From contig JANNXQ010000066.1 in the NCBI GenBank assembly GCA_031409655.1, forward strand, positions 1 through 64,000: a stretch of DNA of 64,000 nt, read 5' to 3'. This DNA is from Chthoniobacteraceae bacterium. GTDB lineage: Bacteria > Verrucomicrobiota > Verrucomicrobiia > Chthoniobacterales > Chthoniobacteraceae. Positions 13,527 to 62,192 of the stretch are shown here, piece after piece. Below the pieces are notes generated by a model. The model saw nothing but the letters and a program-made list of their open reading frames with translations. It did not search any database and was not told the origin of the DNA. Position numbers and translations under genes: made by a program. Numbering within the stretch: position 1 is the stretch's first letter; every line of letters begins with the position of its first letter.

Positions 13527-13631
13527 GGTCCGGACACTGTGCAGGAGTCGAGCGGAGCGGGCCAGCGTTTGTCTCCGCGCGCGCAAAAGGCAGGGTTGGC
13601 GGTGCTTGCCGACTGCGGCTACAGTCGTGCC

Positions 13632-38858: not shown

Positions 38859-38930
38859 TTGCGGGAGCCGGACTCGAACCGACGACCTCCAGCGCATGAG
38901 GCTGGCGAGCTGGCGCCGCGCTACCCCGCG
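38859..38930 (-). tRNA. Atypical/pseudo tRNA-fMet (CAT)
   Basis: CGCGGGG..TCCCGCA acceptor with C1:A72; anticodon arm CCAGC-CTCATGC-GCTGG; T arm GTCGG-TTCGAGT-CCGGC; shortened D-loop; no encoded CCA. Confidence 0.65.
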
Positions 38931-54637: not shown

Positions 54638-55095
54638 GCGTCGCCTCGCATCGCGACTCTGGCAGGGATTGGAGCGGAAATTCGCGCGCCTCGCAGTGCC
54701 GCCCATTCCATGGGACTCTTCCAGATTGCCACTGCCGGTGACAGTGGAAGCAGGAGCACTCCTACGTTCGACAAGGACCAGAAGGCTCTCGCCGAAGCCG
54801 CAGCCACCCGCGTCCTGTCCCTTGCCGGCCAGCGGAACCGGCATAGGACACCGCCTGCGCGCATCCGGCGGGACAATGCGAGACAGGCGTCCCCACCTGT
54901 CATCAAACAGCGATGAGCAAGTTGGCGCCCGGACATCCGCTCACACCCACTCCGCGCACATCAGCTCCGCCTGCGCGAGCACGGTCTTCACCGCCTCCTC
55001 CTGCAAGTCCGGCGGGTAGCCGTGTTTCTTCAGGATGCGCTTCACCATCACTTTGATTTTCGCTCGGGCGCTTTCGCGGTGTGTCCAGTCGATGG

Positions 55096-55179
55096 CCTGG
55101 CGAAGTGCGAATGCAGAAGTGCGAATTACGGAGTTCCGGCCATTCGACATTCCGAATTCGTCATTCGACATTTGCCCCG
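55096..55179. repeat. Heptamer inverted-repeat cassette replacing part of hsdR
   Basis: cgaagtg cgaatg cagaagtg cgaatt ... cattcga cattccg aattcgt cattcga catttg. Confidence 0.75.
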
Positions 55180-55273
55180 GTCCTTGGCGAGTTTGATCAG
55201 CTCTTCGATGACCTGCATCGTCGAGATGGCTCGATTGTGGTAGGCGTTGAGGGTCTTCTTGAGTTTCTCGCTG

Positions 55274-55353
55274 AGCCGAGCCGCTGGAGCGTGCGAGACA
55301 GACAGCGCGAAGCGATGGGCGAAGCCCGCAGGCATGGGAATGCCGGAGCCAAC
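55274..55353 (+). mobile_element. Structured mini-insertion element (copy in hsdR)
   Basis: AGCCGAG..GAGACAG..CAAC; removal restores QSQVFSEK. Confidence 0.75.
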
Positions 55354-55486
55354 ACCTGGCTCTGCACGAGGTTGCGTTTGGAGCGGACTTTGAGTTCGTC
55401 CTTGAGCAGCTTCTCCAGCAGCTCGGCGGCGACGTTCTTGTGTTTGAGGCCGCGCACTTCGGCGAGGAATTGGTCGCTCAAGATGC

Positions 55487-55571
55487 AGCCGAGGGAGCGT
55501 GCGGAGCGACCGAGACAGACAGCGCGAAGCGCTGGGCGCAGCCCGATTGAGCCGGGGGCGAAGGAGTCAAA
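55487..55571 (+). mobile_element. Structured mini-insertion element (copy in hsdR)
   Basis: AGCCGAG..GAGACAG..CAAA; splits PDI/ILSD. Confidence 0.75.
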
Positions 55572-55729
55572 TGTCCGGCTTGGGCAAACCGGCGGCGGTG
55601 AAGACGTCGATCACCTGGCCTTCGGTGGTGATGGCCTTGCTGACGAGCTGGCGGATGGCGGCGTCGATCTGCTCGGGCGTCTTCCGGTTAGTGCTGCTCT
55701 GCTTGTTCAGCGCGGCTTGCAGGGCTTGG

Positions 55730-55814
55730 AGCCGAGCCGACTGGCGGGAGGCGAGACAGACTGCCGCAGGCAGCCCGCAGGGCGAACCCGCCGAGAGGCA
55801 GCGGGTGAGGCAAC
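55730..55814 (+). mobile_element. Structured mini-insertion element (copy in hsdR)
   Basis: AGCCGAG..GAGACAG..CAAC; splits RDDVS/FQAL. Confidence 0.75.
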
Positions 55815-56046
55815 AAACTCACGTCGTCGCGGATCGCGGTGGCTTCATCGCTCGCGGCGCAGAGGGCAAAGGCGCGGGAAAGCTCCGTCACCACTTGCAC
55901 CCAGCGCTTCTTGCCGTCTTCCTGTTCGAGGATGTGTTCCTGTCCGGCGGGGATGAGCGCGAGGCGTTCGGTGGGTTTGCCGGTGGTCCACTTGTCCCAG
56001 TTGAAACCGCGCATCAGGTCGCAGGCGATGCCGTGTTTCTCCAGCA

Positions 56047-57561
56047 TCACGGCGATGGCTTGCGCGGTGTCGAAGGTCGAATTCCCCTGGCCGCCGCTCT
56101 CGGTGTAGGTGACGAGCGCCTTGGCCTGACTCGCAGCATGCTCACGAGACCTGCCGCCAACGTCAACACGGCTCCGATCCCAAGACCGATCCGAGGCGCT
56201 GCACTGGCGGATGTCAGAGTGAAAAGCAAGCTCACGACAACCGCACCGGCGGTTTGCCCAAACAGCCGGGCGGTGCCCTGCATACCTCCCGCCGCGCCAC
56301 TCCGCGCGCTCGGTGCGGAGAGGAACATGTTGCGGTTGTTGGCCACATTGAAGAAGGCGAAACCGATGCCGCATAGCATGGTGAACGGCACGAGCGGCAG
56401 CGGGTTGCCCTTCAGCGGCCACAGAGCGACGGCCCCAAGCCCAATCGCGAGAAACAAACCCCCAAAGGCGCAAAGCCAGGCTGGCGACACGCGGTCCGCG
56501 AGACGGCCCGCGAATGGAGCCGTGATTGCCACCGCCAACGGCCAAGCCGTCATGTATAGTCCTGTCATCCAAGTGTCCTGCCCAAGCCCGTGCTGGAGGT
56601 AATAGGGTAACGCAACCATGCCTGCGGTCTGCCCAGCGAAGCAACACACCGAGGCGATCACCGAGTAGCGGAATGAATCATCACGCAGCAGGTCTAGCGG
56701 GATCAGCGGCACCTTTTTCGGCATCTCCCGCTGAATCAGCGCAACCAGTTCAAGAGCTGCTGCGGCGAGAAGAAACACACCTAGCATCGGCCTAGCTGGT
56801 AGCATTTCCGCACCAACCACCAACGAAGCAAAGGCTCCGGCGTTCAATGCCACACTGACCAAATCCAACCGACGTGCTGTCCCGCCGACCTCGGGCAGCG
56901 CGCGGGTGGCGAATAGCACCAACACACCCAAGGGCAGGTTGATGGCGAAGAGCCACGGCCAGTCCGTGGCTGAAAGGATCGCAGCACCGAGCGACGGGCC
57001 GGCGGCAGCCGCCAACGCTACGGCAAGGGCGTTCCAGCCGATTGCAGCGCCGAGTCGTTGCTTTGAAACGACGACACGCAGCAGTGCGACGCCGAGAGCC
57101 ATGACGGCAGCACCCCCAAGACCTTGGAGGAAGCGGGCCGCGACAAGCCAAGACAGCGATGGTGACAACGCGCACAACACGGACGCCCCCGTGAACAGCC
57201 CAACACCCGCCGTAAAGACTCTGCGATAACCCAGGCTTTCTCCGAGTGCGGCGCAGGGCAGCAGGGCCATCAGCAGCGCAGTCTGGTAGGCGGTAATTAC
57301 CCAGACCGACATGGCTGGCGTCACATGGAGGGAGCGCGCGATTGTCGGCAGAGCGACGTTTGCTATGGCTGCGTCCAGCACCACGAGCACCATGGCCGCC
57401 AGCACGGAGGCGATTGCGGTCTTGCTCCCTAGATTGCGCACGTCCGGCACTGAGACATCGCTTTGTTCCGGTGATTCCGCCCGGTGGGTCTTGGAGGATG
57501 GGGCATCGAAAGCGATGGGGCCGGGTGCCAAAAGGCGTCCACTGGATTGGCTAAGTGGCAT
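56047..57561 (-). CDS. DHA2-type MFS efflux transporter (3' end runs into the hsdR remnant)
   Basis: LD.AIANVALPTI, W...AY, ARFLQGLG, W.WLF.INLP.G. Confidence 0.9.
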   Translation of the reverse strand: MPLSQSSGRLLAPGPIAFDAPSSKTHRAESPEQSDVSVPDVRNLGSKTAIASVLAAMVLVVLDAAIANVALPTIARSLHVTPAMSVWVITAYQTALLMALLPCAALGESLGYRRVFTAGVGLFTGASVLCALSPSLSWLVAARFLQGLGGAAVMALGVALLRVVVSKQRLGAAIGWNALAVALAAAAGPSLGAAILSATDWPWLFAINLPLGVLVLFATRALPEVGGTARRLDLVSVALNAGAFASLVVGAEMLPARPMLGVFLLAAAALELVALIQREMPKKVPLIPLDLLRDDSFRYSVIASVCCFAGQTAGMVALPYYLQHGLGQDTWMTGLYMTAWPLAVAITAPFAGRLADRVSPAWLCAFGGLFLAIGLGAVALWPLKGNPLPLVPFTMLCGIGFAFFNVANNRNMFLSAPSARSGAAGGMQGTARLFGQTAGAVVVSLLFTLTSASAAPRIGLGIGAVLTLAAGLVSMLRVRPRRSSPTPRAAARGIRPSTPRKPSP

Positions 57562-57563
57562 GG

Positions 57564-58109
57564 TCAAGCAGTCTTCAGCGTCCAGACGCCATTCTGTTCA
57601 ACATACCTCGTCACTCGGTGGTCCTCTTTGTCCTCTTTCTTCAAATCCCGCTCTGTGAAACGGAAGAGCAGTGCGGGTCCAGAAAGGCAACGGGTGTCGT
57701 GAATATCTCCCGGCAGATACACCTGCACCTGTCCAGCACGCACGATGGTGGAATTCCTTTTCACCAGTTTCACGCCGCCACTCTGGTCCTCGATTCGGGC
57801 ATACGTTCCCATCTCGACTTCGCCTTGCTGAATCGCATAGATGACCCACGCCCTGCCGTGGTCATGCGGCGGTCGATAAAGCCCCGCAGGTTCCGTGTGC
57901 GCCAACAGCATGAACCCTTGGGTCGGATGCCGGAACAGCTCCTCGTAGAGCGGAGCTTGGCGGTGCAGCGCCGCCAACCACTCTTCCGAGTCTGGCGCTT
58001 TGACGAGTTCCTCCAAATGCTGGCGACAACCAGCGACCACTTCGGAAGTCAGTGGTCCCCAAATCGACCCGACTCCATCAACAAACTTTTCCAACGAGTT
58101 ATTAGTCAT
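57564..58109 (-). CDS. Cupin-fold (cysteine-dioxygenase-like) protein
   Basis: PPHDHG..W..Y, PGDIHD. Confidence 0.75.
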   Translation of the reverse strand: MTNNSLEKFVDGVGSIWGPLTSEVVAGCRQHLEELVKAPDSEEWLAALHRQAPLYEELFRHPTQGFMLLAHTEPAGLYRPPHDHGRAWVIYAIQQGEVEMGTYARIEDQSGGVKLVKRNSTIVRAGQVQVYLPGDIHDTRCLSGPALLFRFTERDLKKEDKEDHRVTRYVEQNGVWTLKTA

Positions 58110-58258
58110 AGTATTTCTTTTTGTTCGGCGCGGATGCACCTGATTCAATTGTTCGTCCGGAGGTTAGGCCGAGCACGCACGCGGCGGAAGGCGCGCCGTT
58201 TGCACTGTGTTCATGCACCAGACGCCACATCTCTTTTGGATTGTGCTACGATCGGCGC

Positions 58259-59191
58259 ATGGAAAAACCCGACCTGAACCTGCTTGTCACCCTGGATGTG
58301 CTCCTCGCGGAAGGCAGCGTGGCGCGTGCGGCCCGACGCTTGCGGCTTAGTCCGTCGGCGATGAGCCGTGCGTTGGCGCGACTACGCGAGACGACGGGTG
58401 ATCCTCTACTGGTCCGGGCCGGGCGCGACCTCGTTCCCACTCCGCATGCGCTCGAACTGCGCGAACGAGTCGCTCTGCTCGTGCAGGACGCTGAAGCCGT
58501 TCTCCGCCCCGTCGAGAAGCTCGACCTCAAACAACTCGACCGAATGTTCACGCTGCGGACCAGCGAAGGCTTTGTGGAGAACTTCGGACCGACTCTCATT
58601 GCTCGCATCCGGGAGGAAGCTCCGGGCGTGCGGCTGTGCTTTATGCAAAAGCCCGACAAAGACAGCGCGGCTCTACGCAGCGGGATCGTCCATTTGGAAA
58701 CCGGTGTGGTGGAAAAGACGACGGCTCCCGAACTGCGTGTGCAGGCATTGTTCCAAGATCATTACGTTGGCGTCGTGCGAGCAGGTCATCCGTTGAGCAA
58801 AGGCAAGATGACCTCCGTCCGCTACGCTGGCGGCAAACATATCAGCGTTTCGCGCCAAGCTCTTGAAAAGGGGCCGTTCGATGAAGTTCTGGAGCCATTG
58901 GGTCTTCAACGGGAAATCGTCGTGGTCGTCGGCGGCTTCTCGACCGCGCTGGGCCTGGCTCGGGCTTCCGATCTGATCGCCAGCGTTCCCGAACGACACA
59001 CCGGAAACCTGCGCGCCGGAATGCATAGCTTCCCACTTCCGGTCTCAGTGCCGGAGTTCACGGTTTCAATGCTCTGGCACCCGCGATTGGACGCCGATCC
59101 GGCACATCGCTGGCTTCGCGGGTGCGTTCGGGACGCGTGCGCGGACCAATTCGCCGATTCATCGTCACCTGAACGAGTGGCCAAAGGCTGA
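58259..59191 (+). CDS. LysR-family transcriptional regulator
   Basis: DLNLL, SV..AA.RL.LSPSAMSRALARLR...DPL.VR, D.AH.WLR. Confidence 0.93.
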   Translation: MEKPDLNLLVTLDVLLAEGSVARAARRLRLSPSAMSRALARLRETTGDPLLVRAGRDLVPTPHALELRERVALLVQDAEAVLRPVEKLDLKQLDRMFTLRTSEGFVENFGPTLIARIREEAPGVRLCFMQKPDKDSAALRSGIVHLETGVVEKTTAPELRVQALFQDHYVGVVRAGHPLSKGKMTSVRYAGGKHISVSRQALEKGPFDEVLEPLGLQREIVVVVGGFSTALGLARASDLIASVPERHTGNLRAGMHSFPLPVSVPEFTVSMLWHPRLDADPAHRWLRGCVRDACADQFADSSSPERVAKG

Positions 59192-59206
59192 AGCGTTATC
59201 GCGAAC

Positions 59207-59301
59207 GGGGTGAAGATTTCCAACGGGAACAATTGCGCGTCCACAGGATGCTTGTCATCGGTGGTCGCGACATGGAAGCAGGCGCGGTGAGTGTGCGCCT
59301 C
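59207..59301 (+). pseudogene. thrS: Fragment resembling the threonyl-tRNA synthetase C-terminus
   Basis: G.KI.N, frameshift, VH.MLVIGGRDMEAGAVSVRL. Confidence 0.55.
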
Positions 59302-59534
59302 AGTATTACGCCGTCGGGCGGGAGCGAGGATATTTTCGCTTGAACGGAGAGGAGATTACGCTCGCCATTCGAACCAGCCGGATCTTTGAGAAAGTGGATA
59401 AACTCTGGAAACAAGTTCATCATCACGGGTCGATCGAAGACGCAGAACTTTTGTCGAAGTATCAGGGTGCCGTGATGGGGCAGAAAACGTAGTGGTTCAA
59501 TTCTGGGAGCGGGGAGTGAGGGGGTATGGTAGAT

Positions 59535-60239
59535 TCATTTGCGCCTCCTTGAAACAAGTGGCGCTCCCCCGACAAAATTATTGGCTGCGGACTCCTCCAG
59601 CATCCACCGACTCATGTCCGCATACGATACAGGCAACCAGGAGTTTAGTGAGCCCGGCCAGTCGGCGGAAGCGACGGGACGCTCGGTGCTACCTCGGGAG
59701 TTGACTGCGGCTCGAACGAGCGTCCAGCGAAGCGACGCAAAAACGCCCTCGCCGAGGGCATCGACGACGGCTTGCTGTTCGGTAGCTCCACGACCCATGT
59801 TGCCTGGCATCCACGAGAAGAAGCGCATAAGCCGGTTCGCCGGCTCTCCTGGTAATGAGGTAAGCAATGTGTTGATGATGACGATGCGGTCAACGTATGC
59901 GGCGGTCATGGACTTCTCCACTGAGGGCATGTTCGCAGAAAGTAGTGCGCCTGGATCAGACGTTGTCGCCGTCACCCCGAGGGCTGTGAGCACCGTATCC
60001 GTGCCGGAAAATGCCTCTGTAAGCGTAGCCACATCGGTGAGAGTCTCGACAACGACAACACGAGAGCCGCCCGGCACGTTGGTGATGCGTTCAGGCCGTG
60101 AACGGACGATGGCGGTGAAAGTGATCCCCTCTGAGCGGCAGACGCTGAGAATACTTTGTCCAAGACCACCTGCCGCTCCAATGACGGCCACATGACGAGG
60201 TAGTGGCCTAGATTGGCTAATTGTGGCTGGTGTCGTCAT
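59535..60239 (-). CDS. NAD(P)-binding Rossmann protein (atypical SDR), cassette-like
   Basis: VAVIGAAGGLG, A.VRS.P, WTLVR; starts 25 nt after the attC. Confidence 0.8.
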   Translation of the reverse strand: MTTPATISQSRPLPRHVAVIGAAGGLGQSILSVCRSEGITFTAIVRSRPERITNVPGGSRVVVVETLTDVATLTEAFSGTDTVLTALGVTATTSDPGALLSANMPSVEKSMTAAYVDRIVIINTLLTSLPGEPANRLMRFFSWMPGNMGRGATEQQAVVDALGEGVFASLRWTLVRAAVNSRGSTERPVASADWPGSLNSWLPVSYADMSRWMLEESAANNFVGGAPLVSRRRK

Positions 60240-60264
60240 GGTTGAGAATGCGTTATTATTCTTG

Positions 60265-60328
60265 GCCTAACGTTCAAATTGAGGGGTGCGCCGCTTTTGG
60301 CGCGTCCCGCTCGAATGCAGTGTTAGAC
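60265..60328 (-). mobile_element. Integron attC recombination site
   Basis: Minus strand GTCTAAC...GAGCGGGACGCGCCAAAAGCGGCGCACCCCTC...GTTAGGC, 64-bp imperfect palindrome. Confidence 0.85.
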
Positions 60329-60966
60329 CAGGCTGCCGCGTGTTTGTTGTCGAAACCTTTCGTGATCAGCCAGACACCGAAAGTAATTTCAAAAAGCCCT
60401 CCCGGAATCGACAGTATGATGCCATACGGCAGACCTGCAATTTCGAGCACCGCACCCGCGAAAAAGACTGCGTAGCCGACAAAACCCCACGCCGCAAGAA
60501 AGCGCGGCACGATGCGACATCGGTAGAGCAGGGCGCAGAATAAGAGGCTGCCGAAGCCGAGCACAGCCATGCCGGTCTGGTAGGCGAAAAAGTTGCCTCG
60601 GCTAGCGGTCATAATCGCTGTCTGAGTCACTGGACTCTCTGCGGTAACAAGCAATAGCAGGCTCTTAACTCCGACAGCGAGTGCAATTGCCTCGATTGCG
60701 CGTGCAGCCAGATATGACCATGCTACCGCTCGATTGAAACGAACGAGCATCGGCAAAAGTAACAGGCCGATGCTGGCGACAATTGCCGAGTTCACGAGCA
60801 TCAGCGCAGCACCTGCGATGAATTGTGCCCTCTTGAGGGCAAGTTCAACGGTCGGATTCGTTGCTTCGATGATTCCAGTTACCATGCCCGTTCCAATCCC
60901 GTAGGCGAGAAATGCTGAAAGAAACAAGACTCCTGCTATGCGCAATTTCGCTCTGTCGGATTTCAT
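60274..60966 (-). CDS. DUF4386-family membrane protein (gene cassette)
   Basis: RIAGVLFL, Y..AR..EA, VPRFL..WG..GY, PGGLFE..FG.WLI.KGF. Confidence 0.82.
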   Translation of the reverse strand: MKSDRAKLRIAGVLFLSAFLAYGIGTGMVTGIIEATNPTVELALKRAQFIAGAALMLVNSAIVASIGLLLLPMLVRFNRAVAWSYLAARAIEAIALAVGVKSLLLLVTAESPVTQTAIMTASRGNFFAYQTGMAVLGFGSLLFCALLYRCRIVPRFLAAWGFVGYAVFFAGAVLEIAGLPYGIILSIPGGLFEITFGVWLITKGFDNKHAAAWSNTAFERDAPKAAHPSI

Positions 60967-61105
60967 ACTGGTGAATTCCTTTCGGTTTCGACGAGCCCAA
61001 GCTCAGCGACGGGCGAGGCTGGCGCGGCCGCTGCGTGGTGGGGGATGAAGTGCTGCACCCAGGCGGGGGAAGTTTGAAGGATGAATGATAAAGGAAGAAA
61101 GGCGG

Positions 61106-61462
61106 TCAGGCTGTGTTGCGCGCTTTCTTGATGATCGTGACGAAGATGGCGGTCAGTTCGTCGCACTCGGCACGAAGGGGTTGCAGCTTTGCCGCTGGCA
61201 CGATTTCTCCATCGACGAGGAGTTCCAGCCAATACGCGGATTCTTCGAGCTCCCGTAGCGAGTCGCCGCACTTCGCGATGAACTCGGCTTTGCTCCGCCC
61301 GCGATGGGCCTCCCGATAATTCGCCCCGACCGATGTTCCCGAGCGGAGCAGTTGTTTGCCCAGCACCTGAGCCTCCGTCGATTTCGGCAGGCTTCCGAAC
61401 AGGCGAATGATTCGCAGCGCAAACTGCTTGGTGCGGTCCTTGAGGTCGTTTTCTTCCCTCAT
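61106..61462 (-). CDS. Four-helix-bundle protein (23S rRNA IVP / TIGR02436-like) in a heptamer-flanked cassette
   Basis: RTKQFA, QLLRSGTSVGANYREA..GRS..EF, E.EES.YWLELL. Confidence 0.92.
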   Translation of the reverse strand: MREENDLKDRTKQFALRIIRLFGSLPKSTEAQVLGKQLLRSGTSVGANYREAHRGRSKAEFIAKCGDSLRELEESAYWLELLVDGEIVPAAKLQPLRAECDELTAIFVTIIKKARNTA

Positions 61463-61558
61463 AATTCTGATTTTCCTCCTCCTTCTGCATTCTCACTTCT
61501 GCCTTTCCGCGGGACCAGCGAGCCTCGGCGGGCACCCAGAAGACGTTCTCGGCTTTGT

Positions 61559-61690
61559 ATTGCTCAGCGCCTCCGCGCTGCCCCTTCGGGCTGCCTGCAG
61601 CAGGCTGTTTGCCGTGCGCTTCCGCGCCCGCCCTTGCAGGCTGCACTTCGTGCAGGCTATCTCGTTCCACTCGGTTCGCTCCGCTCGGCT
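61559..61690 (-). mobile_element. Structured mini-element with a nested second copy (61608-61676), in-frame in hsdM
   Basis: AGCCGAG..[AACCGAG..GAGATAG..CAAA]..CAG..CAAT; removal restores DPDEYK. Confidence 0.72.
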
Positions 61691-61808
61691 CGTCGGGGTC
61701 TTCGGCATTGGCCCCGGCGTATTCGCCCTGGCCGGCGAGGAGCTTGGCGCGGTGCTCCTCGACGGTGTCGGAGATATACTTGAGGAAGATGAGGACGAGG
61801 ACGACGTG

Positions 61809-61874
61809 GTTGATAGGCGCCGCCGCACCCACCCTTCGGGTCGCCTTCGGCGATCTGTCTCGCTCCGCTCGGCT
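61809..61874 (-). mobile_element. Structured mini-element, in-frame in hsdM
   Basis: AGCCGAG..GAGACAG..CAAC between AAEY and HVVL. Confidence 0.75.
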
Positions 61875-61904
61875 GTATTCCGCCGCGTCCATGTTGTTGC
61901 TCCG

Positions 61905-61937
61905 GTTGCCTTCGGCTGTCTCCGCTTCGCTCCGGCT
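61905..61937 (-). mobile_element. Minimal 33-bp structured mini-element, in-frame in hsdM
   Basis: AGCCGGAGCGAAGCGGAGACAGCCGAAGGCAAC after LWLTAD. Confidence 0.7.
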
Positions 61938-62192
61938 GTCGGCGGTGAGCCAGAGCTTGGCCTCGAAGCCGATGGTGGCGGTGGAAGAACTGCTGCCGTT
62001 TTCTTTTTTAATGCGGGCCATGGAATCGGCACGATGAAGAGCACTGGGGGAAACAGCACGCCAGAACCTTGGGCGCATCTGGCGTGGTTTTGATGCAGGC
62101 ACAGGTGCCGGTCGCGGTGCGATCAACCGCCACCACCGTCTGCGAATCGCCGTTCGCTCCCGCGGAGGGTGAAGGCTAAACGCGGGCGCGCA

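Follow-up and report, generated by a model that had tools for sequence, protein, structure and literature searches.

What are the short DNA inserts that interrupt a broken type I restriction-modification operon in a Chthoniobacteraceae bacterium, and how did they come to be there? The question is raised by a stretch of 64,000 nucleotides, here called the window (contig JANNXQ010000066.1 of assembly GCA_031409655.1), in which seven related inserts lie within the hsdR and hsdM genes. A preliminary description made from the window alone had placed them, one copy nested in another, and had reported that they lack an open reading frame (ORF), terminal inverted repeats and a target-site duplication. 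All positions and strands were found again in the sequence, and none of these three features was seen at the seven copies. It had left the inserts without a named family. Their cassette, however, almost certainly is the core of the tRNA-linked repeats (TLRs), annotated as RtT (RF00391), though the window copies themselves miss that model. The inserts are real, beyond chance and not an artefact, and they are a mobile-looking form of a known yet unexplained repeat core. A reading of the RtT core as a mobile insert was not found in the accessible literature, older subscription papers and supplements being outside this scope.

Anatomy and insertion footprint

The source genome (306 contigs, 94.9% complete, 5.3% contamination) was searched with profiles built from the window copies, which gave 23 matches at E <0.5 with a best E of 1e-11 (the seeds match by construction); the reversed genome, serving as control, gave best E values of 4.9 and 1.0. 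A covariance model returned 18 strong and four short matches, and the combined catalogue holds 31 copies, including six long-first-hairpin copies and three extra short ones added by reading. In an unfiltered model search of the window, four of the seven copies rank far above the rest; the other three, namely the minimal copy and the two hsdR copies with a long first hairpin, give weak scores of 13-18 bits. Within the 64 kb the copies are confined to hsdR and hsdM, as had been described. One unlisted, weak intergenic stretch (13545-13588, plus strand, 20.9 bits) contains the first hairpin only and may be a decayed copy or a chance match.

Read 5' to 3' on the strand with the triloops, the element follows a host G or C and starts with an A, a base x2 and one further base, which lead into the first hairpin, C-GA-GC-GNA-GC-GA-G, with its tandem GA. 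Then come an A, a base y, usually another A, a G with a base m, up to three hairpins, a base k, a C and finally AA. The x2:y pair was present in all of 145 copies, and 82 of 83 had Gm paired with kC. In a pooled set the x2:y pair is formed in 141 of 144 copies and Gm:kC in 130 of 144 (the m:k misses are mostly short forms, whose ends the parser may have misplaced), with three states per pair; E. coli shows a fourth state for x2:y. In an alignment of 36 rows, which contains non-independent kin and from whose sequences the structure itself was drawn, 91.9% of 756 cells are paired and double-sided changes occur in 15 of 21 pairs. None of 500 shuffles scored as high on four of five measures and 4 of 500 did on the fifth, and slid controls reached at most 45%. 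One row, L216, is in the reversed strand; it was kept in the pair counts and in the model R1, which lowers both, and left out of the G-T count. This covariation supports a fold of four hairpins and two short end stems, which place the 5' and 3' junctions side by side. The non-autonomous, structure-defined family proposed earlier is borne out in that the covariation holds in large alignments and insertion at the DNA level is supported.

The interior of the closing stem, made of the two pairs Gm:kC, ranges from one GAA hairpin, in the minimal window copy, through an A/T-rich loop to three hairpins. Comparison of the copies shows everything within this stem to be exchangeable or shrinkable. Among 735 stem cells, G-T (7) was no commoner than the mismatch A-C (6), and the loops are GNA or ANA triloops. 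GNA triloops and motifs of the tandem GA type are highly stable in single-stranded DNA (ssDNA). Because of the few G-T pairs, the triloops and this stability, ssDNA is favoured as the working form of the element, and the occurrence of both orientations in genes also points there.

The footprint was derived from empty alleles in relatives, paralogues and public contigs of mixed communities, loose matches being discarded. Between empty and filled sites, the host triplets AAT, AAA and AAC are unchanged, and AGT, AGC, AGA, GGA and TGA are converted to AA plus the unchanged third base. AAG becomes AAC: at a Lys codon of hsdM eight of eight empty alleles read AAG and the filled ones AAC, and the same change is seen at one site in hsdR, within a 7-mer repeat and within a palindrome, and also at the window sites 55274 and 55730. 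There is also one weak case of AAA to AAC. A G follows the AA in 2 of 144 copies, compared with 33% expected from the genome. The preceding base is G or C at 95 of 98 distinct non-gammaproteobacterial sites, where no other flank position is conserved, and in 140 of the 144 pooled copies. Hence a G or C precedes the insertion, AA takes the place of the two host bases that follow, a third base A, C or T is kept, a third G is turned into C, and no duplication arises. The empty alleles confirm the earlier estimate that ca. 3 nt of host sequence are replaced, with the exception of the minimal copy, where nine host bases were lost or converted. This copy measures 33 nt as 61905-61937 and 39 nt counting six converted bases; its true end may be at 61899. 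The commonest length is 63 nt (34 of the 98 sites), and 54 of the 98 lengths are multiples of three. Joins in the public contigs carry further differences; they show empty alleles, not excision.

Kinship with the tRNA-linked repeats

A pattern scan of species genomes gave at least 122 loci. The 80 listed with titles comprise 52 from Verrucomicrobiota, 27 from Gammaproteobacteria and a single actinomycete match, which was excluded from family membership. At the gammaproteobacterial matches, tRNA 3' parts are repeated and the cassette sits in their T-loop, and 14 of the 15 tRNA-linked loci caught by the window-derived pattern exceed the gathering score of RF00391. In the reverse test, R1, whose 36 rows are verrucomicrobial copies only, matched all 15 tRNA-linked loci and scored the annotated RtT behind E. 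coli proK with 31.8 bits (E 7.5e-7). There the cassette is placed at G|AAT of the repeated T-loop, the same kind of site as that of the inserts, and it agrees with them in sequence and fold, tandem GA hairpin included. RtT is then a copy of this cassette placed within the T-loop of a tRNA 3' end that has been duplicated, and there is hardly any doubt that the inserts and the RtT core belong to one family. RtT-related sequence is present in 4799 of 5426 E. coli genomes at a median of eight places; 11 of the 12 listed rows are annotated as RtT.

Tandem GA hairpins were seen in RtT earlier through covariation (PMC8250186; 10.1101/2020.02.04.933952). According to PMC8144298, E. coli K-12 holds 22 TLRs, which are defined by a copied 18-19 bp 3' end and which, as that text states, are without a known function. 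The window copies lack such a copied tRNA or rRNA 3' end, are located in hsdM and hsdR instead of a stable-RNA operon, and match RF00391 neither at its gathering threshold nor with the E limit relaxed to 10; the sole Rfam match within the window is a tRNA at 38859. TLRs were first described in 1978. Since the core is present and the defining tRNA part is missing, the window copies are homologous to RtT yet not members by definition. Similarly, two of five verrucomicrobial loci score below the gathering threshold of RF00391 and three give no score, and one verrucomicrobial hsdM copy reaches 29.3 bits against a threshold of 45. No tRNA was found in ten other element loci of the source genome that were scanned. 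In contrast to TLRs, whose place is in stable-RNA operons and which are regarded as RNAs, the window copies lie in protein genes and in both orientations. RtT annotations may mark selfish DNA rather than regulatory RNA.

At three loci of one verrucomicrobial genus (L106, L207, L208), repeats linked to tRNA-Glu stand in tandem and carry the cassette in their T-loop, which is the arrangement of E. coli. Copies of Rahnella and Ewingella (L020, L030, L032, L058) are located inside a larger repeat, with 6 and 12 model matches per genome, and no tRNA gene was found within 1.5 kb at the three of these loci scanned. The copies at G516 (L229, L051), L004, L088 and L074 are nested in repeats with a presumed resemblance to integron attC sites. 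Mobilome coverage has been found to be raised at the tyrT region, which the authors attribute to RNA/DNA hybrids (10.1101/2024.07.17.603846), and hence it is not counted as support. A suggested link of RtT to CoCoNuT systems was dropped, as the word is absent from the versions of the text consulted. The TRIP1 repeats of E. coli have other loci and lengths (PMC10888264) and are set apart by description only.

All tallies given here count kin and shared alleles repeatedly. With the strict pattern, matches came from 4 of 60 relatives and from 6 of 400 genomes across the phylum, the source genome being the richest carrier; the left-end motif occurs in 28 of 80 genomes of the family, with zero in the controls. 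Copies are present also in single-contig and four-contig genomes and in cultured isolates. On viral contigs, one scan matched 8 loci and the left-end motif 38, many of them as a short two-hairpin form; on some of these contigs (L269-L303) this form, with a GG/CC closing pair, recurs ahead of tandem small genes. Stop-free flanks compared with Pfam identified transposases of the IS3, IS66, IS1380, IS4/IS5, ISL3, IS256, IS21, IS110 and Y1 types as hosts, and Pfam on flanks added hsdM, hsdR, terminase, amidoligase, YhcG, thiC, gidA and cytochrome-domain linkers. PHROGs gave names to four only of 61 unassigned flanks. In a family-level sample, from which six previously examined loci were dropped and whose loci, partly picked for copy pairs, are non-random, hsd genes host 9 of the 52 copies and transposase domains are touched by 15, the majority of the others being unassigned. 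Both orientations occur in genes, even inside a single terminase gene and a single transposase gene. A plasmid search with a window copy gave two weak partial matches; plasmid records matching an RtT-type copy exist, several of them chromosome-sized. Among named phages there are three near-full matches, all Salmonella records, of which one is annotated as RtT.

Candidate routes of insertion

Many unrelated sites with empty alleles, nesting, tandem copies, a patchy distribution and the occurrence on phage contigs are signs of mobility, and insertion as mobile DNA is very probable. We infer that it is an ongoing process. We lean towards the view that the inserts are free-standing copies of the RtT cassette, likely spreading as a non-coding ssDNA element that is mobilised in trans by an HUH enzyme. 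The folded cassette would be excised and pasted in trans by a predicted enzyme of the Y1, TnpA-REP-like type and would land mostly in exposed or dispensable DNA, namely transposase genes, other repeats, tRNA T-loops and one shared hsdM/hsdR clade. Frame-keeping copies would survive in hsdM and in ordinary genes and frame-breaking ones in hsdR and transposases, and insert-laden hsd arms would then move between lineages through recombination. The identity of the enzyme is a tentative prediction, nearly balanced between acceptance and doubt. An HUH enzyme is the most likely agent acting in trans because HUH enzymes recognise single strands by their fold, do not generate a duplication and are able to cut C|A. 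TnpA-REP enzymes cut and rejoin folded ssDNA, the cleavage sites being C|T and C|A (PMC8266576); C|A cleavage is known for one group 3 enzyme (PMC8266576, PMC3733652). At all three element junctions a strong base precedes an A.

Known systems share parts of this behaviour. REP and REPIN sequences with their TnpA-REP (RAYT) enzyme are likewise short, non-coding and folded as ssDNA, with presumed mobilisation in trans, and REPs inside genes have been reported from the verrucomicrobium Opitutus terrae (PMC8266576, PMC3733652). The element differs in lacking the GTAG/CGTC tag (its linker is A-Y-A-G) and the inverted doublet, in its multi-branch fold and in its overwritten junction bases, and no REPtron was found for it. 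With IS200/IS605 ends and PATEs it has in common the absence of terminal inverted repeats and target duplication, a 3' end that is often TCAA, and a linker dinucleotide that pairs with the bases before the 3' junction, comparable to the guide pairing described in PMC8266576. Its target, however, is one conserved upstream base, G or C, and not a fixed tetra- or pentanucleotide left intact, and a limited search of 38 viral and 30 family loci gave no parent with the same ends that carries tnpA or tnpB. It is unlike miniature inverted-repeat transposable elements in having neither terminal inverted repeats nor a target-site duplication. Rickettsia palindromic elements (PMC3733652) are also palindromic DNA in coding regions, often in frame, but their sequence is unrelated, many copies of our element break the frame, and its bias towards mobile genes and one hsd clade is strong.

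Several results weigh against mobilisation by an HUH enzyme. None of the 13 Y1 genes of the source genome is flanked by the element, either within 330 nt upstream and 520 nt downstream of the domain or by position, and Y1 genes turn up only as insertion targets. In the same limited search of 38 viral and 30 family loci, no left end with gene-sized cargo was found. The hairpin foot carries no GTAG tag. Insertion of IS200/IS605 elements is a clean paste, whereas here host bases are overwritten, and the change of G to C is unexplained by HUH chemistry. Neither an excised circle nor an excision within one strain was observed in the contigs, which are from mixed communities. The E. coli cassette is known as a transcribed RNA. 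Single copies fold no better than shuffles (z -1.8 to +0.9, 11 of 11 folds), so the structure claim rests on covariation, folding energy being not significant. The overwritten bases and the missing tag argue against any described HUH member and leave room for capture during repair and for an RNA route.

The overwritten junction bases and the 9-nt loss, indeed, would be accounted for without a dedicated transposase if host end-joining or template-switching polymerases took up a nuclease-resistant folded strand where DNA breaks or forks stall. Such capture would fit with the lack of a partner gene, with copies at deletion junctions in four hsdM relics and with the several unrelated repeat families accumulating in the same hsdM genes, and a bacterial end-joining polymerase is known (PMC9943667). 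We nevertheless regard it as unlikely: the footprint, with G/C before, AA after and exactly three bases at nearly all empty-allele sites, is too regular, the covarying end stems imply that something reads the fold, and recombination between two copies also explains the deletion junctions. Less probable still is a tiny retro-element, with RtT-like transcripts undergoing reverse transcription before they insert, although the gammaproteobacterial cassette is transcribed with tRNA operons (PMC8144298) and is always in the tRNA sense in the loci seen, and one verrucomicrobial copy (L064) adjoins a reverse-transcriptase-like frame. A reverse transcriptase had been named in the preliminary description as the alternative to an HUH/RAYT-like enzyme acting in trans; this option is weakened by the source genome, which is incomplete and has no RVT_1 (PF00078) match, other reverse-transcriptase families not having been searched. 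The missing match and the absence of a G-U excess also set the element apart from retro-elements and retron-derived repeats, and the triloops typical of DNA and the lack of a target duplication speak against an RNA route.

A preference for defence genes had been suggested, and the strong enrichment in hsd genes stands: 14 of the 31 copies lie in ca. 0.1-0.2% of the genome (span estimated). At least seven sites in hsdM and at least eight in hsdR are used, hsdR is broken while hsdM is open, and empty alleles are present in the same habitats, as would be expected if the element purposefully targeted hsd genes and toggled restriction by re-excision. The preference itself did not hold in general, since one hsd clade only is hit, transposases, terminase, repeats and ordinary genes contain copies too, and shared alleles inflate the count. 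A switch is in our view very improbable: the carriers seen are relics that have deletions and further inserts, excision could not revert the junction changes from Lys to Asn and from Phe to Leu, other hsd clades of the genome are copy-free, transposase frames outnumber hsd genes as hosts in the family-level sample (15 versus 9 of 52), and the same filled alleles recur across genera. It is hardly credible that the inserts are mosaics assembled from organisms sharing conserved hsd and transposase genes. The contig number and contamination of the assembly would allow it, and no single public contig compared spans the hsd arms, but the same filled sites, including the nested one, occur in independent assemblies, and single-contig and four-contig genomes and cultured isolates carry copies as well.

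A wider reading would make the RtT/TLR cassettes an old cross-phylum class of minimal ssDNA transposons, with a putative enzyme of a kind not yet described that reads a fold of 45-65 nt, pastes it behind a G or C and changes three bases of the host; the E. coli repeats would be its stranded copies. We consider this doubtful; if it were true, the exchangeable inner loop would allow cargo to be carried. Reading the RtT core as a mobile insert with minimal parts, a fold, a junction rule and active-looking carrier genomes turns it into a testable question.

Other parses were rejected. Translational bypassing and intron-like splicing were dropped since copies occur in both orientations, and IS91-type (CAAG/GAAC target) and integron-type parses conflict with the empty alleles. 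A convergent copy pair in G516 gave no partner gene: ordinary DNA lies between the copies, and one of them is inside an IS110 gene. The Y1 genes of the source genome are flanked by other palindromes. Two Y1 domains (C138:15902-16189 and C102:35377-35604) are located in long open frames of 934 and 1374 aa, apparently within housekeeping genes. The genome also has two GIY-YIG matches, and no element copy was found at their loci.

The hsd relics and their inserts

Of the 14 hsd copies of the source genome the window holds seven, C256 and C198 hold two each, and C158, C291 and C279 hold one each; a partial copy on C122 with an hsdR-like flank, assigned by reading, is a fifteenth candidate. With two duplicated sites dropped (13 of 29) and an estimated hsd span of 6-12 kb, the enrichment is far above chance. 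All of them belong to a single hsdM/hsdR clade or a close relative. The genome has six further hsdM frames and five further hsdR frames, which are open and overlapped by no copy. The rest of the genome's copies are in an IS66 transposase, in a sulfatase, within palindromic or 7-mer repeats and in unassigned DNA. Sites are reused, with three quite different variants at one hsdM codon pair. Three other genera carry the filled arms of the window, and G533 has even the nested copy, at 86% identity. The hsd count is probably inflated by insert-laden arms that pass between lineages by recombination, and we read the excess as a sink with hitch-hiking rather than a purpose-built anti-defence switch.

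The features of the window are listed in the table. Copies in hsdM fall in the first 110 codons and those in hsdR in the 3' third of the gene. The copy at 55274 is found again on contig C158 and in genome G533, and its empty alleles are on contigs from three public sequencing runs. At 55487, AA overwrites two host bases relative to empty alleles in public contigs. The 55730 site is also filled in L096 and G542 and empty in public contigs. Of the nested pair, the un-nested form occurs in L174/L176 and the same nested arrangement in G533.

Table. Element copies and surrounding features in the window
Feature	Position	Strand	Remarks
Relic of 3' part of type I hsdR (PF11867)	54941-56139	-	interrupted by three antisense copies
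Palindrome of 7-mer repeats	55100-55178		substitutes part of hsdR; separate insert kind
Element copy, long-first-hairpin variant	55274-55353	+	77 nt + right triplet; antisense in hsdR, frameshifting
Element copy, long-first-hairpin variant	55487-55571	+	82 nt + right triplet; antisense in hsdR, frameshifting
Element copy	55730-55814	+	82 nt + right triplet; antisense in hsdR, frameshifting; model score 43.9 bits
Cargo between the hsd arms: MFS transporter, LysR regulator, DUF4386, two further ORFs	56047-60966		no element copy
Four-helix-bundle gene (PF05635) with 7-mer-like repeat flanks	61106-61462	-	deletion junction inside hsdM; separate insert kind
Relic of 5' part of type I hsdM (PF12161)	61512-62021	-	frame stays open through its four sense copies
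Outer element copy	61559-61690	-	63 nt, split by the nested copy; sense, in frame in hsdM, net 129 nt
Nested element copy	61608-61676	-	66 nt + right triplet, in linker of outer copy; model score 63.8 bits
Canonical four-hairpin copy	61809-61874	-	63 nt; sense, in frame in hsdM at Lys codon; 83.5 bits
Minimal copy	61899-61937	-	consists of the first hairpin, the linker and a single small closing hairpin; in frame, net gain of 30 nt

Between the hsdM and hsdR arms, ca. 5 kb of cargo take the place of the operon's middle part. The reading frame is kept in 11 of 13 hsdM variants and in 1 of 10 hsdR variants (p ~0.0006, a comparison confounded by length class and orientation and made on non-independent events). 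One restriction-modification clade is seen here to decay with its restriction broken, its methylase frame kept and its arms persisting around variable cargo.

The hsdM 5' arm and hsdR 3' arm flank differing cargo in four genera (window 54941-62021; L340, L342, L343), which resembles a recombination slot made of two pseudogene ends. At L188, L191, L196 and L200, element copies or composites span large hsdM deletions, as though two copies had recombined. The PF05635 gene with 7-mer flanks occurs at deletion junctions of the hsdM relics L342, L174 and C179 as well, the same cassette type is present in hsdM of G542, and the source genome has eight PF05635-related frames. Other insert families in the same hsdM clade (L179, L190, L173/L186, L343) include an in-frame nuclease-like cassette, which we take to be DUF559-like, short palindromes standing in for a similar length of host codons, and an insert of 48 nt common to several alleles.

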